Part shown: positions 2,179-18,950 of the stretch, one piece after another
Layout of the letters: every line of letters starts with the position of its first letter
How positions within the stretch are numbered: the stretch's first letter is position 1
Source: Phycisphaera mikurensis NBRC 102666
Lineage (GTDB): Bacteria > Planctomycetota > Phycisphaerae > Phycisphaerales > Phycisphaeraceae
Direction: 5' to 3'
Length of the DNA: 32,000 bases
Assembly: GCF_000284115.1 (NCBI RefSeq)
Contig: NC_017080.1
Span: forward strand, 570,001-602,000
Position numbers and translations under genes: made by a program
The notes under the pieces: model-generated
What the model was told of the DNA's origin: nothing
Database searches by the model: none
Seen by the model: the letters and a program-made list of their open reading frames with translations, nothing else

Positions 2179-3096
2179 TCACTCCACGTTTTGAACCTGC
2201 TCCTTGAGCCGGTCGATCAGCGTCTTGAGATTCACGACCCGACGCGAGATCTCGGCGTCGGCGCTCTTGGCTCCCAGCGTGTTGACCTCGCGGAGCATCT
2301 CCTGGGCGAGGAAGTCCAGCGTGCGGCCGGCGGGCTCGCCGGTGTCGCGGGCGACCACCTCGGCGAACTGGTCGAGGTGGCCGCGCAGGCGGGCGAGCTC
2401 TTCGCTGACGTCGCAGCGGTCGGCGAAGAGCGCGACCTCGCGGGCGAGGTCGGCGGGCTCCAGGCGAGGAGCCCCGGCGGCGGGCAGGTCGACGCGGGCG
2501 AGCAGCTCGGCCACGCGCGCGGTGAGCCGGTCGTGGTGGCGGTGGACGGTGGAGGCGGCGGCGGCCGCCGCCGCCTCCACCTCGGCGGCCATCAGCTCGC
2601 GGTGCCGGGCGAGGTCGGCGGCAACGGTCTGGCCCTCCTCGGCCCGCATCGCGTTGAGGCGGTCGGCGGCCTCGTCCAGCAGCCCCAGCAGCACGGGCCG
2701 GGCGAGGTCCAGGGCGTCCCGGCCGCCGGCCGCCTCCTCCACCACGCCGGGCAGCGCCAGCAGGGCGGCGAGGTCGACGCGGGTCTCCTCGGCCCGCTCG
2801 CCCAGGTGCGACCGCAGCACGTCGAGCTGGCCGAGGTAGCCGCGGATCGCGGGCTCGTTGAGGCGGTGCGGGGCGTGGGTCCCGGTCTCGGTGATCCGCA
2901 CGGCGAGCGCGAAGGAGCCGCGGGCGAACCGTTTCCGCAGGGCCGCCTCGAGCTCGGCGTCCAGGCCGGCGAGCTGGTCGGGCAGCCGCGCGTGGCACTT
3001 GAAGAAGCGGTGGTTGAGGCTCCGCAGCTCGACGGCGTGATGGACGCCGCCGGCTTCGGTGGAGGCCTGGCCGAAGCCGGTCATCGAGAGGATCAT
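2179..3096 (-). CDS. yicC: YicC-family protein (stress-induced, endoribonuclease family; YicC_N plus DUF1732)
   Basis: 305-aa ORF. It starts MILSMTGFGQA...VELRSLNHRF and ends ...LAQEMLREVNTLGAKSADAEISRRVVNLKTLIDRLKEQVQNVE, which are the typical YicC N- and C-terminal motifs. Confidence 0.9.
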   Translation of the reverse strand: MILSMTGFGQASTEAGGVHHAVELRSLNHRFFKCHARLPDQLAGLDAELEAALRKRFARGSFALAVRITETGTHAPHRLNEPAIRGYLGQLDVLRSHLGERAEETRVDLAALLALPGVVEEAAGGRDALDLARPVLLGLLDEAADRLNAMRAEEGQTVAADLARHRELMAAEVEAAAAAAASTVHRHHDRLTARVAELLARVDLPAAGAPRLEPADLAREVALFADRCDVSEELARLRGHLDQFAEVVARDTGEPAGRTLDFLAQEMLREVNTLGAKSADAEISRRVVNLKTLIDRLKEQVQNVE

Positions 3097-3166: not shown

Positions 3167-3745
3167 TCAGTCGGCCGCCGGCGCGGGGGTGCCGGGCCCC
3201 GGCTGCGGGTCCGCCGGCTCGCCGGCCACCGCGTCGAGCACGTCGTCGACGAGGTCGTGGGCGGTCATGTCGGCGGCGACGGGCTCGCGGTTGGCGTTGT
3301 TGGCGGTGGCCGAGTCGGGGTCGTCGCCGGTGGTGGGCGTGATGGGCGTCGCGCCGTCGGCTCCGTCCGCGGTGGCGGTCTCGGCGGCGTCGCCGGCGGG
3401 CGCGGCTTCCGCTTCCGCCGCAGCGGCGTCGTCCATCGGGATCTCGAAGACCGGCACCGCCGCCTCGGCCTCGGGCGTGGTGGTCCAGGTGAGGCCCATC
3501 GCCAGCAGCACGAAGACGACGAAGCACGAGGCGGTCACGATGGTGAGGAAGTCGCCGACCTTCGCTCCCACAAACGCCCCCTCGTTGCCGCCGGCGCCGC
3601 CGAAGGCGCCCGAGAGCCCGCCGCCCTTGGGCTTCTGCACGAGGATGATGAGCATCATCAACACCGAGACGAGCGCGAAGAGGGCGGCCAGGACGGTGAC
3701 GAGCACCGGGACGGCGAGGGTGAGCGGGAGGAGCGTGGCGGGCAT
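3167..3745 (-). CDS. secG: Preprotein translocase subunit SecG with a long C-terminal low-complexity extension
   Basis: The N-terminal 80 aa or so match SecG: TM1, then LVQKPKGGGLSGAFGGAGG, then TM2. The gene lies immediately downstream of tpiA, the classic tpiA-secG order. About 110 extra Ala/Asp/Pro-rich residues follow. Confidence 0.85.
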   Translation of the reverse strand: MPATLLPLTLAVPVLVTVLAALFALVSVLMMLIILVQKPKGGGLSGAFGGAGGNEGAFVGAKVGDFLTIVTASCFVVFVLLAMGLTWTTTPEAEAAVPVFEIPMDDAAAAEAEAAPAGDAAETATADGADGATPITPTTGDDPDSATANNANREPVAADMTAHDLVDDVLDAVAGEPADPQPGPGTPAPAAD

Positions 3746-3787: not shown

Positions 3788-4567
3788 TCAGGCCGCGGCG
3801 GAGACGATCGCGAGGAAGTCGGTGCTCTGGAGGGCGGCGCCGCCGATGAGGCCGCCGTCGACGTCGGCGCCGGCGAGCAGGTCCCCCGCGTTGCCGGGCT
3901 TCATCGACCCGCCGTACTGGATGCGCACGCCCGCGGCGGCGTCGGCGCCGTAGAGCGAGACGAGGGCCCGGCGGATCGCCGCGTGGGCGGCCTGGGCGTC
4001 TTCGGGGCTGGCGGTGCGGCCGGTGCCGATCGCCCAGACCGGCTCGTAAGCGACCGTGACGCGGGCGAGGCGCTCGGCGGGCACGCCGGCCAGCCCCAGC
4101 GCGAGCTGGCCGGCGTTGACGGCGTCGGTGCGGCCGTTCTCCCGCTGCTCGAGCTTCTCGCCGATCGCGAGCGTGACGTCGAGGCCGGCCTCCAGCGCCG
4201 CGAGCACCTTCTCGTTCACGAGGGCGTCGCTCTCGCCGAGGACGTGGCGGCGCTCGGAGTGGCCCACGAGCACGGAGGCGACGCCGAGGTCGCTCAGCAT
4301 CGACAGCGAGGTCTCGCCGGTGAAGGCCCCGTCGGGCTGGAAGTAGGCGTTCTGCGCGCCCACGGCGATCGGGGAACCCTTCAGCGTGTCCGCGACCGCC
4401 GCGAGGTGCGGCATCGCCGGGAACACCGTGACGTCGACCCGGTCCTGCGTCGCCCCGGCCACGCCGTCCCGCAGCGCCGCCGCGAGCGAGCGGGCGGCGT
4501 CGAGCGTCAGATTCATCTTCCAGTTGCCGCCGATGTGGGGGCGGCGGGTGGGGGTCGGCGTGGGCAA
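3788..4567 (-). CDS. tpiA: Triosephosphate isomerase
   Basis: Contains GGNWKMN near the N-terminus, plus VLVGHSERR, AYEPVWAIGTG and QYGGS motifs. The ORF track extends to 4726, but conserved TPI sequence begins at HIGGNWKMN. An in-frame TTG at 4567 gives about 259 aa, the normal TPI length. The start remains uncertain. Confidence 0.9.
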   Translation of the reverse strand: MPTPTPTRRPHIGGNWKMNLTLDAARSLAAALRDGVAGATQDRVDVTVFPAMPHLAAVADTLKGSPIAVGAQNAYFQPDGAFTGETSLSMLSDLGVASVLVGHSERRHVLGESDALVNEKVLAALEAGLDVTLAIGEKLEQRENGRTDAVNAGQLALGLAGVPAERLARVTVAYEPVWAIGTGRTASPEDAQAAHAAIRRALVSLYGADAAAGVRIQYGGSMKPGNAGDLLAGADVDGGLIGGAALQSTDFLAIVSAAA

Positions 4568-4847
4568 GCGGGGCTTCCGGGGGTTCAGGGGCGAAACAGC
4601 GGGCGGGGATGATAAAGGTTCCACCCGAGCCGCGGACCGCGACACTTCTCGCGCCGTGCGAGCCGCGGTCCGCGGGTGGCTGTCGATCGAGAGGACCGGC
4701 CGGTGGCGGAAGCCCGGTTCGGCCACGCGAGAGCATCGCGCACGACCATGGAGCCGTCACCGCCTCGCAGGAAGCCGGGCGGGTCCACGCCGAGCAAGGA
4801 GGCTCGCCGTGGCGTATTCGATCGTTCCGCCGGGTTTCGCGGGGTTC

Positions 4848-5016: not shown

Positions 5017-8000
5017 GTGGAACCTCCTGAACCGTCAGGCGAGCCTCGCCCTGCGCCGCGTGCGCAGCTCGGCCCGCCGCCCGCCGCCCGCCGCCCGGCC
5101 GACCTCGAGCCGCTCGAGCAGCGGATCCTGCTGTCCGGCACGTTGGTGTCCTCGCTGAAGGGCCACTGGCGGCTCGATGAAATCGCCGGCTCCACCGCGT
5201 CCAGCGGCGTGGCCGCCGTTCACGCGACTCTCCTCGCGGACGCCGCGTTCGCGCCCGCCGGGGGCCGCCTCGGCGGCGCCCTCTCCCTCTCCGGCTCCGG
5301 GAGCGCCGCCGTCGTCGGCAACGTGCACGACCCCGGCTCCGGCAGCCAGACCGCCAGCATCTGGTTCAGGCGGCCCGGCGGCGGCGCGATCGGCAACGAC
5401 CAGTTCCTCTTTTCCAAGGGCAATCGCTACTCGACCCGCGAGGGCTGGTCGCTGAACCTCGAATCCTCCACGCAGGAGATCCGCTTCCGCGTCAACGGCA
5501 GCGACAGCTCCGCCCAGCGAGCCAGCGTCGAGGCCGACCTGCCGCAGGACGACCGCTGGCACCACCTCGCGGCGGTCATCGATCGCGACGCCGGGACCCT
5601 CCGCGCCTACCTCGACGGCGACGGCTCCGTCTGGCGCACCGGCGGCGGCGGGCCGACCACCCGGAGCCTCGCGTCGGTCACCCACATCGACACCGACGAC
5701 CCGCTGACGCTCGGCGCCGTCCACGACGGCCACCTGCTCCGCGGCAACTTCACCGGCCTGCTCGACGACGCGAGGATCTACGACCGCGGCCTCGGCGAGC
5801 TGGAGATCCAGGCCCTCGCCTCCGGCGCCACCCGCTTCGAGCCTGAGGTTACCGCCACCGGCTCCTCGTCCACCCTCACCGCCGGCGCACCCTCCACGCT
5901 CGGACTCCACGCCGAGCACGCCCGCCCCGACCGCTGGGCCATCGACTGGGGCGACGGCACCAGCGAGGAGCTCGCCGGCGCCGCGGCCTCCCGCGTCCAC
6001 ACCTTCGCTGGCTCCGGCTCCCCGCAGCAGATCGCTGTCACCGCCTTCTACGGAACCGAGGCCTTCCAGGCCCCGATCCGCGACGGCGGCGCCGAGGCCG
6101 ACTTCGCGCTCGGCGGCCGGGCCGTTCTCGACACGGGCAGCCGGAGCTGGATCCGCGACGGCGCCGTGCAGCGCGACGGCAAGCTGGTCGTCGCCGGCGG
6201 CCCGAACTTCACCGTCGCCCGCTTCCTCGCCGACGGCACGCCCGACGCCTCCTTCGGACCGCACGGCACCGGGGTCGTGGAAATCCCCACCGCCGGAGAG
6301 GGCCAAGCGGTCGCCCTCCAGCGCGACGGCAAGATCGTCGTCGCCGGAGGCTCCTGGTTCTCGCTGGCCCGGCTGAACCTCGACGGCTCGCCGGACACGG
6401 GCTTCGGTTCCGCGGGCACCGGCGTCGTCGACGACACCTTCGGCTCGACCTTCGAGGCCAACGACCTTCTGATCCAGGACGACGGCCGCATCGTGCTCGC
6501 CGGCGACGGCGCCGGCGACTTCATCCTCGCCCGCTTCGACCCCGACGGCCGCCGCGACCACTCCTTCGGCGGACCCGGAGCCAACGGCCGCGTGCAGACC
6601 GACCTCTACGGCGCCCGCGACTCCGCCAACGCGATCGCCGCCGGCCGGGACGGACGGCTCTACGTCACCGGTCGCACCACCAGCGCCGGCAGCAGCGACT
6701 ACGACGTGGCGCTCGCCGCTTACTCCGCCGACGGCGGCCTGGACCGGAGCTTCGGCAGCAACGGCCGCGCCCGCGCCGACTTCGGCGACGACGACGAGGC
6801 CGCCTTCGGCATCGACGTGCAGCCCGACGGCCGCGTCGTCGTCGCCGGCCGCTCCCGCGTCTCCGACGCCAACAGCTACGACTTCGCCACCGCCCGCTTC
6901 ACCGCCGGCGGCTTCCTCGACGCCTCCTTCGGCGGCGACGGCACGGTCACCACGCACTTGGGCCGCGGGTACGACGCCGCGTACGGCGTCGTCGTGCTCA
7001 ACACCGGTCAGCTGCTCATCGGCGGCCGCACCTCCGGCCTCGGCACCACCAACGGCTACGACTACGGCGTGGTCCGCCTCGATGCCGACGGCTCGCGAGA
7101 TCTGACCTTCGGTGAGGGCGGCGTCTCCGCGATCGACTTCGAGGGCGAGCGGGACGACGCCGAGGCTCTGGTCGTCGGCAACGACGGGCGGATCTTCCTG
7201 ATCGGGCGAGCCGACGGCAAGATCGGCGTCGCCGCGACGACCGGCTTCGCGGCGCCGGATTCCGGCGGCAGCTTCGGCGCCGGGTGGCGGCTGGCCACGA
7301 TGAAGCCGCACCACGTCTACGGCCCCACCGGCTACGTCGGTGGCGCGCACTACGAGCACCTCCCCATCGTGGCCGAAGACGGCGTCGGTGTGGCCCGGGT
7401 GCTCGCCGGCCAGTCCTTCGTGCTGCCCGGCGACGAGAGCTCGGCGCTGGCCACCACCGGATCGCTGGATTTCACGGCGCAGGCCGGAGCCGCCGCCGCC
7501 TCGGCGGGGCTGATCCTGGCCGGCTTCGCGGAACTGGAAGGATTCGGCGACACACCGAAGCGCAGGCTGAACCTCCGCTGGACGCCCGGCGGCGGCCTCC
7601 TGCTCGAGCAAGGCGGCACGGAGGTGTTCCGGCTGGCCGGTCCATGGGCCGACGGCAACCTCCACCGCTTCACGCTCGCGTGGGAGGGCGATCGCGTCAC
7701 GTTCTTCGCCGACGGAGCCGTCGCCGCGTCCGGCACGCTGGTGGCCGCCACGGACTGGGCATCGTGTTCGCCGATGTTCGGGGACGAGAAGACGGACCAG
7801 CGGGGCACCGCCGCTGCCCAGGTGATCCGCGACGTGACCGTTGGCGAGGGATCTTTCTCGGTGGCGGACGCCGCGGCGGCGGTCGCTGCCGCATCGACCC
7901 CGCTGGCCACGGCTTCTCGAGAAGCCTTCATCGGGTACGAGGCGACCGACGGCAGCTTCTCGCAGAACTTCCTCGCCCAGCGCATCATCTCGCACGACGC

Positions 8001-11000
8001 GGGGGCGCTTGCCGACCCCGCCGAGATCGGCCGCGGCTGGATCCAGGACGGTTCCTTCACGCCGGACGTGCTCCTGCCCGGGCGACCCATCTACCAGACG
8101 CTGCTGTTCGGTGACCCCGGATCTTTTCAGAAAGTTTCGACGGTCTACACCACCGCGTCCGTCTCCGGCCGATCTGACGCCAACCAGATGGTCCGCGTGT
8201 CCAACGGGTGGATCACCGGAGAAGGATCGATGGCGCTGGATCTCACCTCGAAATCGCGGGAGATCCACTGGGGCCTGAACGTCTGGGACCACGATCGCTA
8301 CGTCCAGCACGGACGCTTCAGCCACTACGTGGCGGATGGTGGCGGCGCAGCGAGCACCAACGGCACCCACTCCGACCTCCACCTCGGCTGGACCGATGGC
8401 AAGCGTTTCATCACCTCCGTTCTGCAGGCACCCGCGCCGATCTTCCGCGGGCACGTGAGCATGACCCTCGGCGGTGACCACCGCTTGACCCGGATCGTCC
8501 ACTACCACGACCCCGCCGGATTCGTCGGCTCGGCCCCGATGACGCCGCTTGCCGCCGGTCTTCTGCGGGATCGCACCGGCGACAGCGTGCCGCTCTCGTT
8601 CATCGACGGCCCCGAAGCCGCGCCGGGTCAGACGGTCGGCTATGGCTCGGTGCGGTTGGCCGACGGCTCTTCGCTCGTCGGGATCGGCCTCGGCGCGTAC
8701 CACCACCCGCCGGCGCAGACGCTCGGTGCGTCGACGGCGTTGGGCTCGGGACACGCCCAGACCACCAGCGTCGCTTCGGTGCGTCCCACAGACGCCCGGC
8801 CGGTCTGGATGGGTGCCGCACAGGGCGGATCCACGGAGATCCTCCGTCTGACCTACGACCCGGACGATCTCAGCTCCGCCCGCACCCACCTGGGCACCGG
8901 CTGGATCGACGAGGCGTGGCTGAAGACCACCGACACGCTGAACACCCGCCACTTCATCTCCGCCAATCCCGCGAGCCGCTTCTACCTCGACCCCGACAGC
9001 GACGCCGACGGCGACGGCATCCGCCTTCTCGACGAGCGGCTTTGGTGGAACACCAACCCCGACAGCCTCGACACCGACGGCGACGGCCTGCACGACGACT
9101 ACGAGATCAGCTACCGCCCCGTCCTCGCCGGCCTCGGCGGCACGGTGAATCCTGGCGCTCCCGACGCCGCGAGCGCCTACGCCAGCCAGTCACCCCGGAC
9201 CCAGCTCCGCGAGCTGCAGGTCGGGCAGGGCGACCTCTTCAACCCGCTCGTAAAGGACGACCCCAAGGCCGACTTCGACCGCGACGGCCTGCCGAACTAC
9301 CTCGAATCCTCCTACGGCAGCCACCCCGGCCTCTCCGACACGGATGGCGATGGTGTCTCGGATCTCAAGGAGCACGAGCAGGGCTCCAGCCCGGTGGATC
9401 CCTCCGACCTGGGGCTCGCACCGCCGCTCGCCACAAAAGAGCGCGTGTCCGTCACGGTCGGCGACCCCAGCCCAAGCCACTCCGAGCAGTGGGCGCTGGA
9501 GTTCAACCGCACGACGCCGGGCGGCCCGGGTTCCACCGAGCGGGTCCGCCTGATGGCGCCCGACCACGGCCTGGTCATCACCGAGGACTTCTGGTTCGAC
9601 GTGGGTGCCGACTACACGGGCGTGATCCAGCACGTGGGGTCGAACACCGACCCGCCGGACTACGACTGGACGGCCGACGTCAAGCTGGCGACCGAGCTTC
9701 CGCCGGAGCAGGCGGACCGCCCCCGAGCGGCGTTGACGGTGACCGAGGTCAACAACAAGGATGAGCCGGTGCTGCCCGGAGGCAGCGACTTCAACATCGA
9801 CGAAGGGAAGATCATCGTGCGGCTTCGGCCATCTGTGGAGATTGATCTGGACGTAGATTCCGACAACACGGCCGGCCTGTACGGCGGCCCGGACGGGACC
9901 GACGAGGAGGATGAGCACGAAGACGCTTATGGAGATCCCGAGCACCCGGGAAAGATCCTGCTCGCCAACACGCTCGATCACGACCGCGACCTGATCCCCG
10001 ACTACGCCGACGGCTTCGGGCTCGACGTCGGCATGCCCACCGCAGACCGATCCACAGGCGCCCGCTTCACGCCGCTGAATCTGGAGGTCACCGGCGTCCT
10101 GGAGCTTGTGCCGGAGGCCGTGCTTCGCATCGACTACGCGGCGTCGGTTCCTTTGGAGATCCAGGCCACCCCGTCGGACCTCTTCGCCTTGCCCCAGACC
10201 GGCAACCTCCGGCTCTGGAACCTCGACGCCAGCACGGCACGCAACGGCGAGTCGTTGCTTAACGGGGGGAACTTCGTTGCCCCCGGCGTCTACAGCTTCG
10301 CTGAGCTTGGGCTTAGGCGAGGGGCCTCCAGCGGGCAGTTGTGGCTCGAAGCGGTGGGAGCGAGCGACGTGATTGGCGGCGACCGCATCACCGCATCCGT
10401 CGGGACGCTTCAGGAGGACGACGTCGCGGGTGAAACCTTCTTAACGCTCTTCAGCGACACGGTCGGCTTCACCGCGGTGGAGGTGCAGCTCGAGCAGCGC
10501 AACACCGCGGGCGGCGGCTGGGTAGACGCGAACGGATTCCTGGCCGCCGACCTTCGGCCATTTCCTGACGGCAGCGTTCCGGACCACTTCGTGTACCGCT
10601 TCGCCGTGGAGGACCCACGCTTTGAGGCAGAAACGATCACCCTCGGTAATCACGACCTCTCGCTGAGCGGCGGGTCGGTCCGCTACAGCGAAGAGTTCGG
10701 GGTGGCCCGACCAGGTCAGGCCGGGATGGCAGATTCGAGCTATCTGATCCTCTCGGCGGGCGAAGTCGACTTCTCCTACAACCCGAACGGCAGCTACCCG
10801 GTGGAGTGGGTGGACGACGTGGCCGCCGCGGACCGCGAGGTCGCTGCCGAGGTCGATCGGGCCGTGACGGACATGCACGGGAGGTGGGCGGCTCCGGCTC
10901 CGGAGCCGGGCAACTCGCCGAACCCCGGTGCGTTCGGCAACGAGGTGCATCGCCGCGTCAGCGAGCGGCTGCAGGGGCGGCCGGGTTGGCTCGTGGACGT

Positions 11001-11604
11001 CGTGGTGGACGAACAAACCAACCGCGTCGTGAAGATCGGGGGCGGACCCGGCGGCAGCGGCACCACGCAGGTGGACCTGATCAAGCTCAGGAGCGGGGTG
11101 TCGCCGGAGGTCGGCGACGTCTTGGCGAAAGAAGACATCAAGGGGGTTTACGACATCAAATCATCGGCTTCAGGAAACGTCCCGCGGGCTCAACGATTGA
11201 AGCTCAAGGTCGTGAGCCAGGGTGGTGCCGCTGCCAACCAGGGTGGCGCGGGAGAAGTGAAGGTGACGCGCACCCGGTACCGCTGGACCGCCGGAGGGGG
11301 CTGGACGGAAAATCTAAAAGTCGCTCGTTCGCTGAAGGTGATGTCGGCCTTCGGGCTGACCACCACGGCTTCGGCCTTCGTCCACGCGGACGAGCTCGAC
11401 GCGGAGCTGCTCGACGTGGTCGCCGCGTTCGAGGAAGCCAAGCGGGTGGACCTGACGCAGCGCCCCGGCGTGCTGGCCATCGCGACGGGCAAGTTCGCCA
11501 ACTACCTGAGCCACTTCGACCCGAGCGGCAACGTGCAGGCGCTCTCGCTCGCGGCCTTCCTGCAGGTGCTCAGCAGCGACGCCTTTGAGCGGGGGGACCT
11601 GTGA
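5017..11604 (+). CDS. Giant multidomain exoprotein; candidate polymorphic toxin with a C-terminal PD-(D/E)xK-like nuclease module
   Basis: 2195-aa ORF with the following regions.
- N-terminal LEPLEQRILLS motif (5104-5136).
- LamG/ConA-like domain ending LDDARIYDRGL (about 5167-5817).
- PKD-like WAIDWGDGTSE...HTF (about 5850-6060).
- About 7 delta-60-type repeats, DGK(I/L)VVAG...ARxxxDG(S/T)xDxSFG (about 6150-7240).
- Second LamG-like segment (about 7560-7760).
- Thrombospondin-type-3 Ca-binding repeats: DSDADGDG, DTDGDGLHD, DRDGLPN, DTDGDGVSD (about 8989-9410, with another acidic cluster at 9846-10020).
- Lower-GC C-terminal region (about 10800-11604) containing GNEVH, QVDLIKL and VYDIKSS, which I read as an H...D...(D)xK restriction-endonuclease-fold pattern.
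The toxin call is inference. The CDS itself is solid. Confidence 0.8.
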   Translation: MEPPEPSGEPRPAPRAQLGPPPAARRPADLEPLEQRILLSGTLVSSLKGHWRLDEIAGSTASSGVAAVHATLLADAAFAPAGGRLGGALSLSGSGSAAVVGNVHDPGSGSQTASIWFRRPGGGAIGNDQFLFSKGNRYSTREGWSLNLESSTQEIRFRVNGSDSSAQRASVEADLPQDDRWHHLAAVIDRDAGTLRAYLDGDGSVWRTGGGGPTTRSLASVTHIDTDDPLTLGAVHDGHLLRGNFTGLLDDARIYDRGLGELEIQALASGATRFEPEVTATGSSSTLTAGAPSTLGLHAEHARPDRWAIDWGDGTSEELAGAAASRVHTFAGSGSPQQIAVTAFYGTEAFQAPIRDGGAEADFALGGRAVLDTGSRSWIRDGAVQRDGKLVVAGGPNFTVARFLADGTPDASFGPHGTGVVEIPTAGEGQAVALQRDGKIVVAGGSWFSLARLNLDGSPDTGFGSAGTGVVDDTFGSTFEANDLLIQDDGRIVLAGDGAGDFILARFDPDGRRDHSFGGPGANGRVQTDLYGARDSANAIAAGRDGRLYVTGRTTSAGSSDYDVALAAYSADGGLDRSFGSNGRARADFGDDDEAAFGIDVQPDGRVVVAGRSRVSDANSYDFATARFTAGGFLDASFGGDGTVTTHLGRGYDAAYGVVVLNTGQLLIGGRTSGLGTTNGYDYGVVRLDADGSRDLTFGEGGVSAIDFEGERDDAEALVVGNDGRIFLIGRADGKIGVAATTGFAAPDSGGSFGAGWRLATMKPHHVYGPTGYVGGAHYEHLPIVAEDGVGVARVLAGQSFVLPGDESSALATTGSLDFTAQAGAAAASAGLILAGFAELEGFGDTPKRRLNLRWTPGGGLLLEQGGTEVFRLAGPWADGNLHRFTLAWEGDRVTFFADGAVAASGTLVAATDWASCSPMFGDEKTDQRGTAAAQVIRDVTVGEGSFSVADAAAAVAAASTPLATASREAFIGYEATDGSFSQNFLAQRIISHDAGALADPAEIGRGWIQDGSFTPDVLLPGRPIYQTLLFGDPGSFQKVSTVYTTASVSGRSDANQMVRVSNGWITGEGSMALDLTSKSREIHWGLNVWDHDRYVQHGRFSHYVADGGGAASTNGTHSDLHLGWTDGKRFITSVLQAPAPIFRGHVSMTLGGDHRLTRIVHYHDPAGFVGSAPMTPLAAGLLRDRTGDSVPLSFIDGPEAAPGQTVGYGSVRLADGSSLVGIGLGAYHHPPAQTLGASTALGSGHAQTTSVASVRPTDARPVWMGAAQGGSTEILRLTYDPDDLSSARTHLGTGWIDEAWLKTTDTLNTRHFISANPASRFYLDPDSDADGDGIRLLDERLWWNTNPDSLDTDGDGLHDDYEISYRPVLAGLGGTVNPGAPDAASAYASQSPRTQLRELQVGQGDLFNPLVKDDPKADFDRDGLPNYLESSYGSHPGLSDTDGDGVSDLKEHEQGSSPVDPSDLGLAPPLATKERVSVTVGDPSPSHSEQWALEFNRTTPGGPGSTERVRLMAPDHGLVITEDFWFDVGADYTGVIQHVGSNTDPPDYDWTADVKLATELPPEQADRPRAALTVTEVNNKDEPVLPGGSDFNIDEGKIIVRLRPSVEIDLDVDSDNTAGLYGGPDGTDEEDEHEDAYGDPEHPGKILLANTLDHDRDLIPDYADGFGLDVGMPTADRSTGARFTPLNLEVTGVLELVPEAVLRIDYAASVPLEIQATPSDLFALPQTGNLRLWNLDASTARNGESLLNGGNFVAPGVYSFAELGLRRGASSGQLWLEAVGASDVIGGDRITASVGTLQEDDVAGETFLTLFSDTVGFTAVEVQLEQRNTAGGGWVDANGFLAADLRPFPDGSVPDHFVYRFAVEDPRFEAETITLGNHDLSLSGGSVRYSEEFGVARPGQAGMADSSYLILSAGEVDFSYNPNGSYPVEWVDDVAAADREVAAEVDRAVTDMHGRWAAPAPEPGNSPNPGAFGNEVHRRVSERLQGRPGWLVDVVVDEQTNRVVKIGGGPGGSGTTQVDLIKLRSGVSPEVGDVLAKEDIKGVYDIKSSASGNVPRAQRLKLKVVSQGGAAANQGGAGEVKVTRTRYRWTAGGGWTENLKVARSLKVMSAFGLTTTASAFVHADELDAELLDVVAAFEEAKRVDLTQRPGVLAIATGKFANYLSHFDPSGNVQALSLAAFLQVLSSDAFERGDL

Positions 11605-12212
11605 ACGACGGCCGTCGAAGCTACATCCACTTGTTCTGGGACATCCCCATCCCGGACTGGAAGCGAACCCTGGTCGAGATGGTGCGGGTCGCGGAGCTGG
11701 GGCATCCAAGAGCGGAAGTCCACGCGTGCGAGATCGACGGCTACGACGTGTGGATGCGGGAGGACGAGTTTTACTCCGAGGAAGAACCCCTCGCCATGAT
11801 GCCGCGGTCCGACGTCCGAACGTCGGACGCCCCCCCCCTCCGCGGCTCCCGGCTCATGTACATCGACTTCATTGGGCAAGCCGAGAGAAGACTGCGGCTG
11901 GCGGAGCTGGTGGAGTCTCTACAGGCGCGGATCCCGGAGGAGATCAGCGGCGGCGTCTTCCCGCCCTGGGATCCCTTCGTCAAGATCGGCCGCCACACCG
12001 TCTGGCAGCGACTCGGCGAGCAACCCAACGGCACGTTCGGGCCGCTCCTGCACGGGCGGCCGACGCTGTCGCTGTCCATCTCGGGTGACAACGGGCCCAA
12101 GCGCCAGGACGAGTACCGAAAACTCGTGCTCAGCGATCCCGTTCTCGCTGCACTCCGCGGCGACCTCGAGGTGAAGTTCGGCCCTTCGCAGGTCGTGATG
12201 TTCTGGGATTGA
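11601..12212 (+). CDS. Hypothetical protein; candidate cognate immunity protein of the upstream C-terminal module
   Basis: 203-aa ORF. Its GTG start (11601) overlaps the giant gene's TGA (11602-11604), a GTGA 4-nt overlap indicating translational coupling. It has no signal peptide, no family I recognise, and lower GC, like the adjacent C-terminal module. Confidence 0.6.
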   Translation: MNDGRRSYIHLFWDIPIPDWKRTLVEMVRVAELGHPRAEVHACEIDGYDVWMREDEFYSEEEPLAMMPRSDVRTSDAPPLRGSRLMYIDFIGQAERRLRLAELVESLQARIPEEISGGVFPPWDPFVKIGRHTVWQRLGEQPNGTFGPLLHGRPTLSLSISGDNGPKRQDEYRKLVLSDPVLAALRGDLEVKFGPSQVVMFWD

Positions 12213-12237
12213 ATCCCAAGCTCTCATGAGGCCGCTT

Positions 12238-12347
12238 TCTCAAGGGAGCGGAAAAGGTGACAGCCACGGCCCGCCGGGGCCTGGGCTGAATGCCGTTGCG
12301 GGGGCGGAAAAGGGGGCGAATGGCGGGGCGGAAAAGGTGACAGCCAC
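12238..12347. repeat. Left boundary repeats: TCTCAAG...GCGGAAAAGGTGACAGCCAC (twice, direct) interspersed with GCCGGGGCCTGGGCT
   Basis: GCGGAAAAGGTGACAGCCAC occurs at 12248-12267 and 12328-12347. Its reverse complement occurs at 20256-20291. TCTCAAG at 12238-12244 matches CTTGAGA at 20306-20312. Confidence 0.7.
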
Positions 12348-12501
12348 GAATGGGGCTCGCCGGGGCCTGGGCTCGCCGGGCTCGCCGGGCTCGCCGGGGC
12401 CTGGCCACCTCGCAGGAGGCGTTGCTTCTTCCGGACGGTTTCTGTACGGTCCTCCTGCCGGGTCGCGTGACCCGCTCCCTCGCTCCTTCCGGAGGCTCCC
12501 T

Positions 12502-13503
12502 GTGCCGCGCCGCAACCGCTGCCTGATCGTCGACCCCGACCTCCCGCAGGCGTGGCACGTCAGCAACCGCTGCGCGAGGTCTCTGTTCCTGCTGGAGCCC
12601 GAGGCACAAGACCGCGGGGATCGGGAGCCGGAGGACCACCGCAAGGAGCTGCTGCTGGCGAGGCTGGAGAAGCTGGCGGCGGTCAGCTCCATCGAGGTGC
12701 TGGCCTTCAGCGTCGTGGGCAACCACCTGCACCTGGTCCTGCGCAACGTGCCCAAGGTCGGCCACGCCTGGTCGCCGCAGGAGGTGCTGGACCGCTGGCT
12801 GGCGCTGCACCCGCTGCGGAACCGCCAGGGCCCGCGGGAGCCCGAGGCCGGCGAGCTGGAGGCGCTGGTGGCCGACGAAGCGTGGGTTGCCGCCACGAGG
12901 CGGAAGCTGATGGACCTCTCGCAGTTCATGAAAGAGCTCAAGCAGCACGTGGCGGTGAAGGTGAACAAGCTCGAGAGCGGCAGCGGCGCCTTCTGGAGCG
13001 GTCGGTACAAGAGCAAGCCGATCGACGATCCCGAGGGTCACCAGCTGGTGCGTTCGATGGTGTACGTGGACCTGAACCCCCTGGCGGCGGGGCTGTGCGA
13101 TCGACCCGAGGACGGCCGCCACACCTCGCTGGAGGGGCGGCTGGGGCGGGACGGACCGGCCACGTCGGCCGGTGATCCTCTCGAGCGGGCACCCAGCGCC
13201 GCCTTCCGCCGCTCCCGCAGCGCCTCGTGGCTGGTGCCGCTGGTGGGCGAGGATCCCAGGTCGCGGATGCACGAAGCCGCCCGTGCCGCATCGGCGGCCG
13301 TGCCCGCTGCAGGCCGCACCGTCTTGGCCGGTCTGACCCTACGTCGGTACCTGCGTGTGGTGGACGCCGTTTCGCGTCTCTTGCGTGCAGGCAAGGCCTC
13401 GCTGGACCGCCGGCTGGCACCGATCCTCGAGCGTGTGGGCCTGGGCCCGGAGGACCTCCGCGTCGGCTTCACGCGTATGGCCACCGGCTCGCCGCACTTC
13501 TGA
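12502..13503 (+). CDS. HUH (Y1) transposase, IS200/IS605 TnpA-like / REP-associated tyrosine transposase (RAYT)-like, copy 1
   Basis: Motifs are WHVSNRCARSLFLL, the HUH motif GNHLHLVLR, FWSGRYKSKPI and VYVDLNPLAAGL (the tyrosine / Y-x-x-x-NP region). The start is placed at GTG 12502, preceded by GGAGG at 12491-12495. Sequence upstream of that is repeat DNA, and it differs between the copies further 5'. Confidence 0.8.
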   Translation: MPRRNRCLIVDPDLPQAWHVSNRCARSLFLLEPEAQDRGDREPEDHRKELLLARLEKLAAVSSIEVLAFSVVGNHLHLVLRNVPKVGHAWSPQEVLDRWLALHPLRNRQGPREPEAGELEALVADEAWVAATRRKLMDLSQFMKELKQHVAVKVNKLESGSGAFWSGRYKSKPIDDPEGHQLVRSMVYVDLNPLAAGLCDRPEDGRHTSLEGRLGRDGPATSAGDPLERAPSAAFRRSRSASWLVPLVGEDPRSRMHEAARAASAAVPAAGRTVLAGLTLRRYLRVVDAVSRLLRAGKASLDRRLAPILERVGLGPEDLRVGFTRMATGSPHF

Positions 13504-13700
13504 CGCCAGCGGATCCGGGTTCCAGCGTCCCCGGCCGGTAGGCTGGCGGGTGTGTCATGCGCCACGCCAGCGGCATCACCCAACGCGAGAGCCGCGCGGG
13601 CTCGCAAACGGCTGGCGCTTGCCCGCGAGGACGCGGGAGGCCGCGCAACCTGCCCGAGCGGTCCGATCCGCGTCGAATGTGGAGGGGGCACCCGGACAGG
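13504..13700 (+). repeat. Conserved right-end (RE) segment, copy 1, with nested hairpins
   Basis: CGCCAGC...GCTGGCG stems at 13504-13549 and 13565-13617. There is an inner palindrome GAGCCGCGCGGGCTC and a CCCGCG-AGGA-CGCGGG hairpin. The segment is near-identical at 15127-15320 and 16945-17160. Confidence 0.75.
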
Positions 13701-13995
13701 GTCTAGGCCCCGGCAGACACCCGGCAGACACCCGGCAGACACCGGCAGACACCGGCAGACACAGACAGACGGTGTCCAGGCCCCGGCAGATCCAGACGGT
13801 GTCCAGGCCCCGGCAGATCCCCGGCAGATCCGGCAGATCCAGACGGTGTCCAGGCCCCGGCAGATCCCGGCAGATCCAGACGGTGTCCAGGCCCCGGCAG
13901 ATCCGGCAGATCCGATCGGCAGATCCCAGGCCCCGGCAGATCCCGTGTCCAGGCCCCGGCAGCCCCCCAGACGGTGTCCAGGCCCCGGCAGATCC
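13701..13995. repeat. REP-like / microsatellite array A
   Basis: About 8 copies of (GACGGTGTC)CAGGCCCCGGCAGATCC, interleaved with 9-11-nt units (CCGGCAGACAC, CCGGCAGATC). Confidence 0.85.
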
Positions 13996-14121
13996 ACCTG
14001 GTCGCCGGGCTCGCCGGGGCCTGGCCAGCTCACAGGAGGCGTTGCTTCTTCCGGACGGTTTCTGTACGGTCCTCCTGCCGGGTCGCGTGACCCGCTCCCT
14101 CGCTCCTTCCGGAGGCTCCCT

Positions 14122-15126
14122 GTGCCGCGCCGCAACCGCTGCCTGATCGTCGACCCCGACCTCCCGCAGGCGTGGCACGTCAGCAACCGCTGCGCGAGGT
14201 CTCTGTTCCTGCTGGAGCCCGGAGCCCAAGACCGCGGGGATCGCGAGCCGGAGGACCACCGCAAGGAGCTGCTGCTGGCGAGGCTGGAGAAGCTGGCGGC
14301 GGTCAGCTCCATCGAGGTGCTGGCCTTCAGCGTCATGGGCAACCACCTGCACCTGGTCCTGCGCAACGTGCCCGAGGTCGGCCACGCCTGGTCGCCGCGG
14401 GAGGTGCTGGACCGCTGGCTCGCCCTGCACCCGCTGCGGAACCGCCAGGGCCCGCGGGAGCCCGAGCCCGGCGAGCTGGAGGCGCTGGTGGCCGACAAAG
14501 GGTGGGTCGCCGCCACGAGGCGGAAGCTGATGGACCTCTCGCAGTTCATGAAAGAGCTCAAGCAGCACGTGGCCGTGGCCGTCAACAAGCTCGAGAGCGG
14601 CAGCGGCGCCTTCTGGAGCGGTCGGTACAAGAGCAAGCCGATCGACGATCCCGAGGGTCACCAGCTGGTGCGTTCGATGGTGTACGTGGACCTGAACCCC
14701 CTGGCGGCGGGGCTGTGCGATCGACCCGAGGACGGCCGGCACACCTCGCTGGAGGGGCGGCTGGGGCGGGACCAGCCAGCAACCCCGCAGCAAGCCGAGC
14801 CCGCCGAGCGGGCACCCACCGCCGCCTTCCGCCGCTCCCGCAGCGCCTCGTGGCTGGTGCCGCTGGCGGGCGAGGATCCCAGGTCGCGGATGCACGAAGC
14901 CGCCCGTGCCGCATCGGCGGCCGTGCCCGCTGCAGGCCGCACCGTCTTGGCCGGTCTGACCCTGCGTCGGTACCTGCGTGTGGTGGACGCCGTGTCGCGT
15001 CTCCTGCGTTCGGGCAAGGCCTCGCTGGACCGCCGTCTCGCGCCGATCCTCGAGCGTGTGGGCCTGGGCCCGGAGGACCTCCGCGTCGGCTTCGCGCGGA
15101 TGGCCACCGGCTCGCCGCACTTCTGA
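14122..15126 (+). CDS. HUH (Y1) transposase, IS200/RAYT-like, copy 2
   Basis: Same motifs as copy 1 (GNHLHLVLR, FWSGRYKSKPI, VYVDLNPLAAGL), with scattered substitutions and one short indel region (GRDQPATPQQAEPAE versus GRDGPATSAGDPLE). GTG 14122 is homologous to 12502. Both copies are intact. Confidence 0.8.
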   Translation: MPRRNRCLIVDPDLPQAWHVSNRCARSLFLLEPGAQDRGDREPEDHRKELLLARLEKLAAVSSIEVLAFSVMGNHLHLVLRNVPEVGHAWSPREVLDRWLALHPLRNRQGPREPEPGELEALVADKGWVAATRRKLMDLSQFMKELKQHVAVAVNKLESGSGAFWSGRYKSKPIDDPEGHQLVRSMVYVDLNPLAAGLCDRPEDGRHTSLEGRLGRDQPATPQQAEPAERAPTAAFRRSRSASWLVPLAGEDPRSRMHEAARAASAAVPAAGRTVLAGLTLRRYLRVVDAVSRLLRSGKASLDRRLAPILERVGLGPEDLRVGFARMATGSPHF

Positions 15127-15292
15127 CGCCAGCGGATCCAGGTTCCAGCGTCCCCGGCCGGTAGGCTGGCGGGTGTGTCATGCGCCACGCCAGCGGCATC
15201 ACCCAACGCGAGAGCCGCGCGGGCTCGCGAACGGCTGGCGCTTGCCCGCGAGGACGCGGGAGGCCGCGCAGGATGCTCCGAGCGGTCCGATC

Positions 15293-15447
15293 CGCGTCGG
15301 ATGTGGAGGGGGCACCCGGACGGTGTCCAGGCCCCGGCAGATCCCGCGTCGGATGTGGAGGGGGCACCCGGACGGTGTCCAGGCCCCGGCAGATCCCCGG
15401 CAGATCCCGGCAGATCCGGCAGATCCGGCAGATCCCGGCAGATCCGG
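15293..15447. repeat. REP-like / microsatellite array B, including a perfect 52-nt tandem duplication
   Basis: The unit CGCGTCGGATGTGGAGGGGGCACCCGGACGGTGTCCAGGCCCCGGCAGATCC occurs at 15293-15344 and 15345-15396. About 5 units of C(C)(C)GGCAGATC follow. Confidence 0.85.
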
Positions 15448-15641
15448 ATGGGTTTCACGGAATCTTGATCGACATCCTTCCTGAGTCCCCGGCCGTACCG
15501 TTCAGCAAAGCACAAGTCAAGGATGGTCTTCGCGAGGCGTATCGAAGATGGGCACATAAGGAAAGTACTCCATTCAATGAGTCTGAAGGAGCGAGATTGG
15601 CGGACGTACTCGATGCCTTTATCGACCGACTGCCAGATTGA
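15447..15641 (+). pseudogene. Start-less C-terminal gene fragment (orphan toxin-tip candidate 1)
   Basis: GC drops to about 50% (121/240 by hand count over 15481-15720). The frame reads ...ILIDILPESPAVPFSKAQVKDGLREAYRRWAHKESTPFNESEGARLADVLDAFIDRLPD*. It stops 4 nt before the ATG of the next ORF and has no start codon of its own after the repeat junction. Confidence 0.45.
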
Positions 15642-15645
15642 TCGT

Positions 15646-16533
15646 ATGCCTGTCCACATAAAGATCACTGTCTTTGAGCATTCCATAGGCTCGGAACATT
15701 TTGCAGAACTCTGCAAAGCTTATCCAGAGAATTTGCTGCCCTCCGGGCTATTTCGGATTACCCGAGAGCCGACGGATGCGAGAATGGTCCAAGTCCAAAA
15801 GCACCTCGCAGAATACGGGCTCAGACCTGCGCAAATGGGAGAGTCTTCTGGTGACGATGTTTATTGGGCCGACCCCGTGTCAGTCCCGACGCCCAAACAG
15901 CTTGCGGAAGCCGAGTGGTTCTCAATTGAGAACATGCTTGCAACCCGCGGCGACCGACTGCACAACGAGGAACTCGAATGGAAGGTGGAAGAGTGCGAAG
16001 ATGAAGGCGATCGTGAACACTGGCAAGAAACTCCGGTCCACGGCTGCTACGGCGCCGCCATCATGGTGACGGAGCAGATCGCGGAGGTGATCCGCGGCTG
16101 GGAAGCGCCCGAGCTGCGGGTGCAGCCGGTCCACTATCACACGCGCGACTGGTCCTCGAACACCAAGGTGCCCATGGAGTGGCGGGAGGCGGGGCTCGAG
16201 CCGCGGTTCTCCGTCGCCAGCCGGCTCACGCTGCCGCTGATGTCGGAGACCTGTCAGCCGGTCCACCGCCGCAGGGGCACGCCCCTGCCGCGAGGTTCGG
16301 ACGAGCCCGCGGCCATGCGACGACCCGAGGGCGAAGAGCAGTTCTGGTGCTACAAGCAGTCGGAGGTGGAGCAAATGCCTCCGTTCGACCTGGCCATGAC
16401 CCACGAGCGCCTAGGAAACTCTTCTCGAGCTCCACTGAACCACGGGCTGGTCTTCTCGAGACGCCTCACCGAACTGCTCAGCAGCGAAGACCCCAACATC
16501 ACCTGGTGGCCGGTGATGTTCGAGGACGAGTAG
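15646..16533 (+). CDS. Hypothetical protein; candidate orphan immunity protein 1
   Basis: Begins ATG 15646 (MPVHIKITVFEHS...). About 295 aa, acidic, no signal peptide. It contains two segments ending in a pattern seen in some immunity families (AIMVTEQIAEVIRGWEAPELRVQPV and LVFSRRLTELLSSEDPNITWWPV); that family resemblance is weak. The ORF track's 15523 start would overlap the preceding fragment. Confidence 0.6.
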   Translation: MPVHIKITVFEHSIGSEHFAELCKAYPENLLPSGLFRITREPTDARMVQVQKHLAEYGLRPAQMGESSGDDVYWADPVSVPTPKQLAEAEWFSIENMLATRGDRLHNEELEWKVEECEDEGDREHWQETPVHGCYGAAIMVTEQIAEVIRGWEAPELRVQPVHYHTRDWSSNTKVPMEWREAGLEPRFSVASRLTLPLMSETCQPVHRRRGTPLPRGSDEPAAMRRPEGEEQFWCYKQSEVEQMPPFDLAMTHERLGNSSRAPLNHGLVFSRRLTELLSSEDPNITWWPVMFEDE

Positions 16534-16584
16534 CGCTACCACGCGAGAAGGTGGACGCCGGGAGACGCCGGGGCCTAAACACCG

Positions 16585-16735
16585 GGGCGGAAAAGGCGGA
16601 AGGGCGGAGCGGAAAATGAGCGGAAAAGATGCCGGCCACCAAACCCACACGACCGCTCTGATCAGCGCACGCTCGGCTTTGCCGGGGCCTGGCCACCGCG
16701 GTTCGGGGGTTCGGGGGCCTGGCCACCGCGGGTCG
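16585..16735. repeat. GCGGAAAAG motif cluster followed by two REP-like units
   Basis: GCGGAAAAGG, GCGGAAAATG and GCGGAAAAGA occur at 16586-16630. GCCGGGGCCTGGCCACCGCGG occurs twice at 16681-16733. This is the same motif order seen after the first immunity candidate (12246-12410). Confidence 0.7.
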
Positions 16736-16944
16736 CGGCCGTGCCCGCTGCAGGCCGCACCGTCCTGGCCGGTCTGACCCTGCGTCGGTACCTGCGTTCG
16801 GTGGACGCCGTTTCGCGTCTCTTGCGTGCAGGCAAGGCCTCGCTGGACCGCCGTCTCGCGCCGATCTTCGAGCGTGTGGGCCTGGGCCCGGAGGACCTCC
16901 GCGTCGGCTTCACGCGTATGGCCACCGGCTCGCCGCACTTCTGA
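16735..16944 (+). pseudogene. 3' remnant of a third IS200/RAYT-like transposase copy
   Basis: Encodes ...AVPAAGRTVLAGLTLRRYLRSVDAVSRLLRAGKASLDRRLAPIFERVGLGPEDLRVGFTRMATGSPHF*, matching the last 68 aa or so of copies 1 and 2. The REP unit is joined directly to internal transposase sequence, consistent with an internal deletion. Confidence 0.8.
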
Positions 16945-17174
16945 CGCCAGCGGATCCAGGTTCCAGCGTCCCCGGCCGGTAGGCTGGCGGGTGTGTCATG
17001 CGCCACGCCAGCGGCATCACCCAACGCGAGAGCCGCGCGGGCTCGCAAACGGCTGGCGCTTGCCCGCGAGGACGCGGGAGGCCGCGGGAGGCCGCGCAGG
17101 ATGCTCCGAGCGGTCCGATCCGCGTCGGATGTGGAGGGGGCACCCGGACGGTGTCCAGGCCCCGGCAGATCCCC
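16945..17174 (+). repeat. Conserved right-end (RE) segment, copy 3
   Basis: Near-identical to 13504-13700 and 15127-15344. It carries a 10-nt tandem duplication (GGGAGGCCGC twice, 17076-17095) and ends GGCCCCGGCAGATCCCC at the junction with orphan tip 2. Confidence 0.8.
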
Positions 17175-17588
17175 GCCTTCGTCCGATTCGTTAATCGCGC
17201 CGACTTCGAAGCCGGCAGCAACGCTCGCCTCGTCCCGGCCGCCGACGGCAGCGGCCGCCAGACGATCGTCCTCGGGACCGCGCAGGCCACGGGCGAGACC
17301 GCTACGCACGCCAATCAGGTCAACGCGATCGCGCAGCAGCTGGCCGAGTCCGGCGATTGGGCGCACATCTCCCTTGACCGCAACTACCGAACGGCGACGG
17401 GGCGGGTTTTCGACCCGAAAGTTGCCAATCCGCTGAATGGCAACCAAATGGTTTCGCCTCGGCCGGACATCGTTGCGGTGGGGCGGGATGGGAGGATGCA
17501 GGTGTTCGAGGTGCAGTCCGAGGGGCAGAACTTCGATCAGTTGGCCGAATACGTCAGAAGGCAGGAGGCCGCCGCCGTCCACGATTGA
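17175..17588 (+). pseudogene. Start-less C-terminal module with a PD-(D/E)xK-type nuclease motif (orphan toxin-tip candidate 2)
   Basis: Reads AFVRFVNRADFEAG...THANQVNAIAQQLAESGDWAHISLDRNYRTATGRV...SPRPDIVAVGRDGRMQVFEVQSEGQ...*. RPD-(x13)-E-V-Q-S is the classic restriction-endonuclease-fold core. There is no start codon of its own; the only in-frame ATG is inside the RE at 16998. Confidence 0.5.
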
Positions 17589-18622: not shown

Positions 18623-18704
18623 GAAGCACAACAGATCCACCATGCGACCGTTGGCTGCGCCCGCTGCGGGCGATGCTCCCAGCGACCAGGAACCTCGCGG
18701 AATG

Positions 18705-18887
18705 GGCCCCGGCAGCGCCAGGCCCCGGCAGCGCGGGCAGCGGTATCCAGGCCCCGGCAGCCCCCGGCAGCCCCGGCAGCCCCCGTGAATGGGCTTTGCC
18801 GGGGCCTGGCCACCGCGGTTCGGGGCCTGGCCACCGCGGTTCCGGGGCCTGGCCACCGCGGTTCCCGGGGCCTGGCCACCGCGGTTC
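18705..18887. repeat. Head-to-head REP cluster (array D)
   Basis: Positions 18705-18780 carry GGCCCCGGCAG(C) units in right-end orientation. Positions 18797-18887 carry four tandem 21-23-nt units, GGGGCCTGGCCACCGCGGTTC(C)(C), in left-end orientation. The cores CCAGGCCCCGG and CCGGGGCCTGG are reverse complements. Confidence 0.85.
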
Positions 18888-18950
18888 CACTTGCAAGATA
18901 CCCACTGCCTCGACCGCCACAACCCCGCCCTCACCGGCCTCACCGGCCTC

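Follow-up and report, generated by a model that had tools for sequence, protein, structure and literature searches.

The C-terminal domain of the giant protein PSMK_05160 and the small protein PSMK_05170, encoded directly behind it in Phycisphaera mikurensis NBRC 102666, probably form a toxin/immunity pair. Both genes lie within positions 570,001 to 602,000 of contig NC_017080.1. This stretch of 32,000 nucleotides with a G+C content of 73% was analysed as a whole and is called the window here; coordinates refer to it unless another locus is named. The evidence in support of this assignment is comparative and structural. The last ~260 residues of PSMK_05160, which we call the tip, belong to a family with a likely PD-(D/E)xK (restriction-endonuclease-like) fold and conserved residues of catalytic type. 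Members of this family are found at the C-terminal end of diverse carriers, including Rhs proteins, and are nearly always followed by a gene of one of three partner types.

PSMK_05160 (WP_041377904.1, recognised by identity to the P. mikurensis protein) is encoded by an open reading frame (ORF) of 2195 aa with a GTG start (5017-11604, + strand). PSMK_05170, the candidate immunity protein, is encoded by an ORF of 203 aa that also starts with GTG (11601-12212, +). Database entries call the former no more than a 'LamG-like jellyroll fold domain-containing protein' and the latter a 'hypothetical protein', and we found no paper that mentions either. The base composition of both is of the coding type, with G+C contents at third and second codon positions (GC3 and GC2) of 0.89 and 0.52 for the giant ORF and of 0.85 and 0.43 for the small one. 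A first-pass annotation, made from the letters alone, had read the start codon of the small gene as overlapping the stop codon of the large one, and this is confirmed in the sequence. The GTGA at 11601-11604 (+) contains GTG at 11601-11603 and TGA at 11602-11604 (11600-11604 reads tGTGA) and is a putative site of translational coupling. A G-rich GGGGGGA is located 4-10 nt 5' of the small-ORF GTG. The scan for promoters and terminators around the operon gave no match, which is uninformative in a planctomycete of 73% GC. A local profile search of the window detected no second copy of the tip or of the immunity gene.

Conservation and predicted fold of the tip

The tip spans aa ~1935-2195 (aa ~1939-2195 at 10831-11601, +). 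A helix and a PD-(D/E)xK-like core extend to ~11300, and a tail of five helices makes up the rest (~11300-11601). With phmmer, 1.84 billion cluster representatives were searched exhaustively, which yielded 164 homologues at E < 1e-3; 105 of these reach E < 1e-10. A word-indexed homologue search gave no match with the tip sequence and at least three proteins with the tip profile. The proteins that bear the tip are 189-3019 aa long. In all 56 matches examined, the tip is placed at or near the C-terminus, with 0-67 residues after it.

Residue conservation was scored in an alignment of 41 tip homologues (A1). Two columns are invariant, D66 and K94, which correspond to D2020 and K2048 of PSMK_05160. 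At least 90% conservation is seen for H24 (H1978), Q105 (Q2059), W37, G79 and Y209/F213, and all aligned sequences have either D or E at position 92 (residue 2046). The first-pass annotation had picked GNEVH (aa 1974-1978), QVDLIKL (2018-2024) and VYDIKSS (2044-2050) as the H / D / (D/E)xK core of a nuclease-like module. Its choice fell on invariant or near-invariant columns of A1, drawn from the family of 164 representatives. The codon of H1978 in GNEVH (10948-10950, +) lies in helix 1 of the model described below, and that of D2020 in TQVD (11074-11076, +) in strand 62-70 of the same model. The codons of D2046-I-K2048, the (D/E)xK motif (11152-11160, +), fall at the end of strand 87-94, and that of Q2059 (11191-11193, +) in the helix after this strand.

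The AlphaFold2 model of the tip, computed on A1, has a mean predicted local distance difference test score (pLDDT) of 84 and a predicted template modelling score (pTM) of 0.73. It contains, in this order, helix 18-31 with H24, strands 37-44, 49-53, 62-70 with D66 and 87-94 ending in D92-x-K94, helix 103-113 with Q105, a short beta-meander and the five-helix tail. The alpha-beta-beta-beta-beta-alpha order of the core, with further strands after it, fits the layout of PD-(D/E)xK cores (alpha-beta-beta-beta-alpha-beta around a central mixed sheet). The acidic D66, on a central strand, and the (D/E)xK motif occupy successive core strands, as is characteristic of this fold.

Structural neighbours of the model are PD-(D/E)xK proteins in two libraries, at weak E values of 0.02-1. 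The top 17 Foldseek matches in the PDB are all PD-(D/E)xK nucleases, namely NucC, Cas4 SSO0001, Exo5 and AdnAB (E 0.08-1, probability up to 0.84). In BFVD, the named top matches are mostly phage Cas4-like, PD-(D/E)xK and RecB proteins, and the best match has E = 0.03 and a probability of 0.98. No single structural match is significant, but their direction is consistent, and the model indicates that the tip likely has a PD-(D/E)xK fold, in line with the nuclease-like fold first read from the motifs. Searches of Pfam, NCBIfam, PADLOC and PDB sequences with tip, partner and the profiles of both yielded no meaningful match; we take the Mfa1 and MoaB-like matches among them (E ~0.03-0.2) for noise.

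The least confident part of the model is a Gly/Ala/Ser-rich hydrophobic helix after the core (pLDDT 57 at residues 161-170). Its maximal 19-aa Kyte-Doolittle score has a family median of 1.49 and is 1.05 in PSMK_05160; it stays below the transmembrane threshold in 34 of the 41 members. On these hydropathy values, a membrane anchor in the tip of PSMK_05160 was rejected.

Downstream partners and carriers

When a single genome of each species was scanned, 12 tip loci were recovered, nearly all of them in metagenome-assembled genomes (MAGs) of Planctomycetota, from Phycisphaerae, Tepidisphaeraceae, Pirellulales and Planctomycetaceae. At 10 of the 12 loci an ORF of 183-211 aa begins 4-40 nt past the tip gene. 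Partners of this type are mutually homologous, with blastp E values reaching 1e-28 to 1e-55, and were aligned as family A3 (~190-210 aa). PSMK_05170 is a divergent member, matching the downstream genes of loci L001, L009 and L011 by blastp at 1e-6 to 1e-12. Its match to the local hidden Markov model (HMM) has E = 2.6e-53, with its own sequence as a row of A3. The members align from residue 1, and for this reason we favour the GTG at 11601 (203 aa) over the RefSeq start at TTG 11631 (193 aa).

Partners were then tallied for those distinct tip loci, 29 in number, whose sequence continues for 500 nt or more downstream; metagenome loci and contig look-ups are included. A same-strand gene starts at -48 to +66 nt from the tip stop codon in 27-28 of them. 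The gene directly downstream belongs to A3 at 19-20 of the 29 loci, in tandem at L008 (three copies) and at L011, L023 and L095 (two each). Leucine-rich repeat (LRR) proteins of 340-534 aa take this place at six loci, where some overlap the tip stop by 4 nt and some have signal-peptide-like N-termini. WD40 proteins are found at two loci, and one locus has no recognised partner. The tips cluster according to partner type (A3, LRR or WD40). At 27-28 of the 29 loci the candidate immunity gene is thus adjacent downstream, and its type co-varies with the toxin-like domain, as expected for immunity genes. We conclude from these comparisons that a single toxin-like family goes together with candidate inhibitors of three unrelated architectures, which may act in different compartments.

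The LRR/WD40 partners of 340-450 aa include L040 3333-4358, L043 5049-6074, L062 2114-3139, L014 3339-4448, L015 2000-3238 and L024 2274-3614. RI-type LRR_6 matches occur among the LRR partners, and overlap with the tip stop codon is frequent. Hydropathy reveals neither a signal peptide nor a transmembrane segment in PSMK_05170 and the A3 family. PSMK_05170 matches no family in Pfam, NCBIfam or PADLOC, the A3 profile has no match in Pfam or the PDB, and a word-indexed search with the 203-aa protein recovered only itself. The description of the small protein as cytoplasmic and unrecognisable in the first-pass annotation is therefore borne out, as is its proposal of a toxin/immunity pair, which the context supports through the A3 partners, the LRR or WD40 partners at eight loci and two Rhs-borne tips.

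The carriers of the tip are diverse and comprise thrombospondin type 3 (TSP3), FG-GAP, dockerin, fn3, LamG, RTX, RCC1, Calx-beta and cadherin-like proteins. The same C-terminal domain on unrelated carriers is a hallmark of polymorphic toxins. Two homologues, P0045 and P0129, belong to the Rhs proteins. The tip of P0045 starts immediately past the end motif of the Rhs core, read as DKSGLES, and the gene after it (locus L013) is of the A3 family (hhalign probability 96%, E = 2e-9). The gene after P0129 encodes an LRR protein. Judged from these sequences, the use of the tip as Rhs cargo is the strongest contextual argument for a toxin role. The statement that no Rhs, CdiA, LXG or MafB carrier is present thus holds for PSMK_05160 but does not extend to its tip. 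Searches of plasmid and phage collections with the tip by tblastn gave no match, and a link to mobile elements has no evidence from them.

Directly upstream of the tip, most tip proteins contain a pre-module of ~330 aa. In PSMK_05160 it covers aa 1609-1939 (9841-10830, +; local HMM 6e-122) and is composed of an N- and a C-subdomain. The N-subdomain, ~205 aa, is marked by DxDxDSDN, PGK, PDYADGF, LRLW and LxLEAV / LYVEAV; the C-subdomain, with DPR and YNP motifs, is mostly found adjoining the tip. The N-subdomain is repeated in tandem up to six times (L005, L027) and behaves as a repeatable stalk unit, not as a single adaptor. The six copies belong to a protein of 2278 aa at L005 2030-6022, the same protein being present in L027.

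A metagenome scan with the pre-module returned 80 of 216 confirmed loci, and the survey of C-termini rests on these 80. Among them, the pre-domain is followed by a C-terminus other than the tip in 44 complete proteins, which form about 21 clusters. Most of these alternative C-termini belong to no recognised family. The others include a protein-arginine deiminase (PAD, 4.6e-39), a lipase-like alpha/beta hydrolase, a near-threshold Ntox44 (23.3 bits vs a cut-off of 24) and two weak zincin matches. At L037 8029-9936 and in L038, PAD (E = 4.6e-39) follows three tandem pre-domains; PAD is unexpected as C-terminal cargo of this scaffold and could itself be an effector. Exchange of C-termini behind a shared pre-toxin region, as in polymorphic toxins, is thus found at the level of domains only. 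Pre-domains of tip and non-tip proteins share up to 48% identity, and those of tip proteins share a median of 41% among themselves. Because the former are about as alike as the latter, we consider the domain shuffling to be old. L021, the only apparent case of a recent tip swap, proved to be a truncated copy of L019.

The expectation for such systems is that the body is conserved while its tip varies. What we observe is the reverse: one tip recurs on many bodies, and its upstream module is joined to many other tips. Homologue searches found no close orthologue of the PSMK_05160 body. More tentatively, and with more doubt than confidence, the pre-module or its ~205-aa calcium-binding N-subdomain may mark a hitherto undescribed class of polymorphic effector carriers centred on Planctomycetota. 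Such a class would have a scaffold open to tandem repetition, more than 20 C-terminal effector types (the nuclease-like tip, PAD, lipase-like, Ntox44-like and many others), export through Sec or LEPR-XLL leaders, and immunity that is cytoplasmic (A3) or periplasmic (LRR/WD40 lipoproteins) depending on the clade.

The N-terminal part of PSMK_05160 has the features of a multi-domain surface protein. The LEPR-XLL motif LEPLEQRILLS (aa 30-44; 5104-5148, +), a putative export-related leader, scores 17.3 bits against a cut-off of 17 (NCBIfam NF012209) and is the only trace of a trafficking domain of a recognised system in this protein. GenBank and RefSeq differ in the start site (5017-5145): one of them lists a protein of 2153 aa, the other the form of 2195 aa, and the 2153-aa form begins past the motif and would lose it. 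Motifs of the LEPR type are also found in the homologues P0023, P0055, P0073 and L043, and classical signal peptides in others. A LamG / concanavalin-like domain follows at aa 94-265 (5296-5811, +; Pfam Laminin_G_3, E = 1.3e-20), and the protein contains a second LamG-like stretch. Delta-60 / DUF5122 beta-propeller repeats occupy approximately 6180-7300 (+; TIGR02608 2.3e-62 and PF17164 1.9e-33, six stretches each). TSP3-like calcium-binding repeats at aa 1326-1462 (8992-9402, +) are seen as DTDGDG motifs in the translation and in sub-threshold matches (NF047639 8e-06, 24.3 bits vs a cut-off of 800; TSP3_bac E 0.18, 12.2 bits vs 25). The last ~590 aa match no family in Pfam or NCBIfam. Pfam, NCBIfam and motif searches of PSMK_05160 gave no RHS, LXG, CdiA or MafB match and no VENN or DPxGL motif. 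FHA/haemagglutinin repeats are likewise without a Pfam or NCBIfam match in this protein, and no CdiB partner was found.

The G+C content decreases along the gene, from 0.734 (5017-7998) to 0.687 (7999-9840), 0.660 in the pre-module and 0.678 in the tip, and is 0.655 in the small ORF. The first-pass annotation had placed the lower value in the tip and the small gene. The decrease is not specific to the tip: it begins near 8000, ~3 kb before it, and spans the C-terminal half of the gene and the small ORF. Over 11101-11340 we count 147/240 (61.3%) in place of the 150/240 (62%) given before.

Proposed mechanism and alternative explanations

In the mechanism that we propose, PSMK_05160 would be an exported multi-domain surface protein, as suggested by the signal peptides and LEPR leaders of its homologues. 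Its last ~260 residues would be a toxin domain with a PD-(D/E)xK core, in which H1978, D2020, D2046-x-K2048 and Q2059 likely build the active site. The tip would most likely be a metal-dependent nuclease directed against DNA or RNA of the target cell, into which it would be delivered. Through the GTGA overlap, PSMK_05170 could be translated in step with the tip. As a cytoplasmic immunity protein, it would bind the tip and block its active site in the producer and its kin. Tip and partner would represent a mobile cassette that has been joined to many carriers, Rhs shells included. In PSMK_05160 this cassette would sit behind the 330-aa calcium-binding pre-module, which elsewhere appears to be fitted with other effector-like ends.

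Several observations weigh against this mechanism. No profile from Pfam, NCBIfam or PADLOC and no PDB sequence connects the tip with any named family of nucleases or Tox-REase domains. No marker of a type V, VI or VII secretion system (T5SS, T6SS, T7SS) is associated with PSMK_05160 or present among the scanned ORFs of the window. The single-sequence model of the partner is poor (pLDDT 41). Several LRR/WD40 partners have, by eye, signal-peptide-like or lipoprotein-like N-termini, and exported-looking partners are unusual as immunity proteins against a nuclease that acts in the cytoplasm. Among the pre-domain proteins compared, there is no near-identical pair of carriers with different tips.

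The same residues and the same fold would also be found in a secreted nuclease that scavenges extracellular DNA or RNA or remodels biofilms, with the small gene acting as a barstar- or NuiA-like safeguard of the producer before export. Carriers that have Sec or LEPR leaders and resemble adhesins or other proteins of the surface agree with such a role, as does the lack of a known contact-dependent delivery apparatus with PSMK_05160 or among the scanned window ORFs. We regard it as unlikely, since the tip is C-terminal cargo of Rhs shells with the same partner gene behind it and since diverged partner paralogues are arranged in tandem (L008, L095, L011, L023). The signal-peptide-like partners at some loci also argue against it, as a periplasmic partner cannot shield the cytoplasm from a nascent enzyme. 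Rhs cargo, arrays and exported partners are typical of inter-cellular conflict systems and not of enzymes for nutrient scavenging. We rank a function as a weapon above a scavenging nuclease because the exported-looking LRR/WD40 partners and the tandem arrays of diverged partners fit protection against an incoming toxin better than a safeguard of the barstar type.

The constant place of the tip at or near the C-terminus is reminiscent of sorting domains. Together with the hydrophobic helix and helical tail after the core, and with the lack of a sequence match to named nuclease families, it could suggest a non-enzymatic domain for anchoring, sorting or assembly of planctomycete surface proteins, with a chaperone or assembly factor encoded downstream. 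This is quite improbable given that the invariant columns are not hydrophobic; they are charged residues of catalytic type (D, K) in canonical PD-(D/E)xK positions. The helix scores given above are below the transmembrane threshold in most members and low in PSMK_05160, and three interchangeable, unrelated partner families (A3, LRR, WD40) suit inhibitors more than an assembly factor. Rhs shells, moreover, encapsulate toxins, not anchors. A PD-(D/E)xK-fold toxin of an unusual kind, for example a highly specific tRNase or a periplasmic enzyme acting on another phosphodiester substrate, would account for the LRR/WD40 partners that appear to be exported, and some PD-(D/E)xK-fold CdiA-CT toxins are tRNases. 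PSMK_05170 and most other partners are, however, cytoplasmic and have no signal peptide, and nucleic acids are the substrates of nearly all PD-(D/E)xK proteins that have been characterised, so that we consider this explanation very unlikely. A nuclease toxin with a cytoplasmic inhibitor is the reading that we prefer.

Genomic surroundings and relation to known systems

The genes upstream of PSMK_05160 have housekeeping functions. They encode a sulfatase (649-1962, +), a YicC-like endoribonuclease (2179-3096, -), SecG (3167-3745, -) and triosephosphate isomerase (3788-4726, -). With core genes on this side, the cassette therefore lies at the border between core genes and a stretch rich in mobile elements. 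Directly after the small ORF, a unit of ~1620 bp is duplicated in tandem (12226-15500), with 98% identity between 12382-12681 and 14002-14301 and 96% between 13182-13481 and 14805-15104. Each copy contains one long ORF (12226-13503 and 13552-15126) with a weak, sub-cut-off match to an IS200-like Y1 transposase model (E ~5e-4 to 7e-4). The copies are flanked by arrays of the GC-rich short repeat GGTGTCCAGGCCCCGGCAGATCC (13709-14022, 15301-15451) and by GGAAAAGGTGACAGCCACG, which is present twice (12245-12348). This arrangement looks like an element of the REP/RAYT type (repetitive extragenic palindromes with their associated tyrosine transposase). Further downstream, ORFs at 15523-16533, 16998-17588 and 17585-18622 have no match in Pfam or PADLOC and a GC content down to 0.52, and a Mutator-family transposase is encoded at 18789-20114 (E = 9e-93). 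The DNA downstream of the cassette (15523-20114) looks acquired or mobile. At 21000-23500 and 25000-25500 the GC content is very high (0.78-0.85) and long ORFs overlap on both strands.

To our knowledge, interbacterial antagonism in Planctomycetota is essentially uncharted, and we know of no contact-dependent antagonism characterised in the phylum. Pfam, NCBIfam and PADLOC contain no model that matches the tip family, its main partner family A3 or the recurrent pre-module. If the proposed function is correct, tip and A3 offer a new pair of nuclease toxin and inhibitor for structural and biochemical study, as well as markers to annotate effector loci in planctomycete genomes and MAGs. The pre-module would serve as a handle for cataloguing more effector types. 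A single toxin family with three unrelated inhibitor architectures would be a case for studying the evolution of immunity.

The nearest structural neighbours of the core of the tip model are NucC of cyclic-oligonucleotide-based antiphage signalling systems (CBASS) and the Cas4/RecB nucleases. For NucC and Cas4 this likeness is at the level of the fold only, with 13-17% identity and E 0.03-1. Unlike the tip, NucC, Cas4 and RecB are intracellular enzymes of defence and repair that have no immunity partner. In the reading proposed here, the pair is similar to barnase-barstar and NucA-NuiA, in which a secreted nuclease is co-expressed with a cytoplasmic inhibitor. The folds of these proteins are unrelated to the tip, and they have neither giant carriers with modular tips nor arrays of inhibitors.

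Rhs/YD-repeat toxins, which bear nuclease tips at the C-terminus and come with RhsI-type immunity, likewise have a small immunity gene behind a variable toxin end. PSMK_05160 differs from them in having no RHS repeats or DPxGL motif; its carrier part is built from LamG, propeller, TSP3 and pre-module. With CdiA-CT/CdiI it shares the giant exoprotein, the modular C-terminal PD-(D/E)xK toxin and the tightly linked immunity gene. CdiA-CT toxins with PD-(D/E)xK cores include the E. coli TA271 and Burkholderia pseudomallei families. FHA/haemagglutinin repeats, VENN and CdiB are all missing for PSMK_05160, which sets it apart from CdiA proteins of the T5SS. In addition, the entry domain of CdiA-CT is N-terminal to the nuclease, whereas the extra helical domain of the tip is C-terminal.

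Polymorphic toxin systems with restriction-endonuclease-fold toxin domains, Tox-REase-1 to -10, were described by Zhang et al. 2012 (PMC3482391). Like these, the tip is C-terminal on large secreted carriers, a candidate immunity gene follows directly downstream and repeat proteins may serve as alternative immunity. The nearest listed signature is that of Tox-REase-7, which is given with GxxxE, IxD, ExK and Q, an occurrence in planctomycetes and verrucomicrobia, and HEAT-repeat, Imm23 or Imm54 immunity (PMC3482391). Both are of the D ... ExK ... Q type. The first motif of the tip, however, carries a conserved His (G-x-E-V-H) in place of GxxxE, and its aspartate motif is TQ(V/I)D and not IxD. 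Its core is trailed by a helical tail of ~100 aa, and the partner family is new. The tip family is further set apart in that its 41 aligned members match no Tox-REase or other nuclease model of Pfam, with no Tox-REase match even at E <= 1. A similar case on the side of the carriers are the TANFOR-domain toxins of Bacteroidetes (PMC7073777), where a previously unnamed conserved domain likewise characterises phylum-centred carriers with diverse C-terminal toxins. The TANFOR domain is unrelated and N-terminal (PMC7073777), whereas the pre-module abuts the tip on its upstream side and can repeat in tandem. Judged by sequence comparison, the tip and A3 are new toxin-like and partner families within the polymorphic-toxin kind, placed on a partly new carrier.

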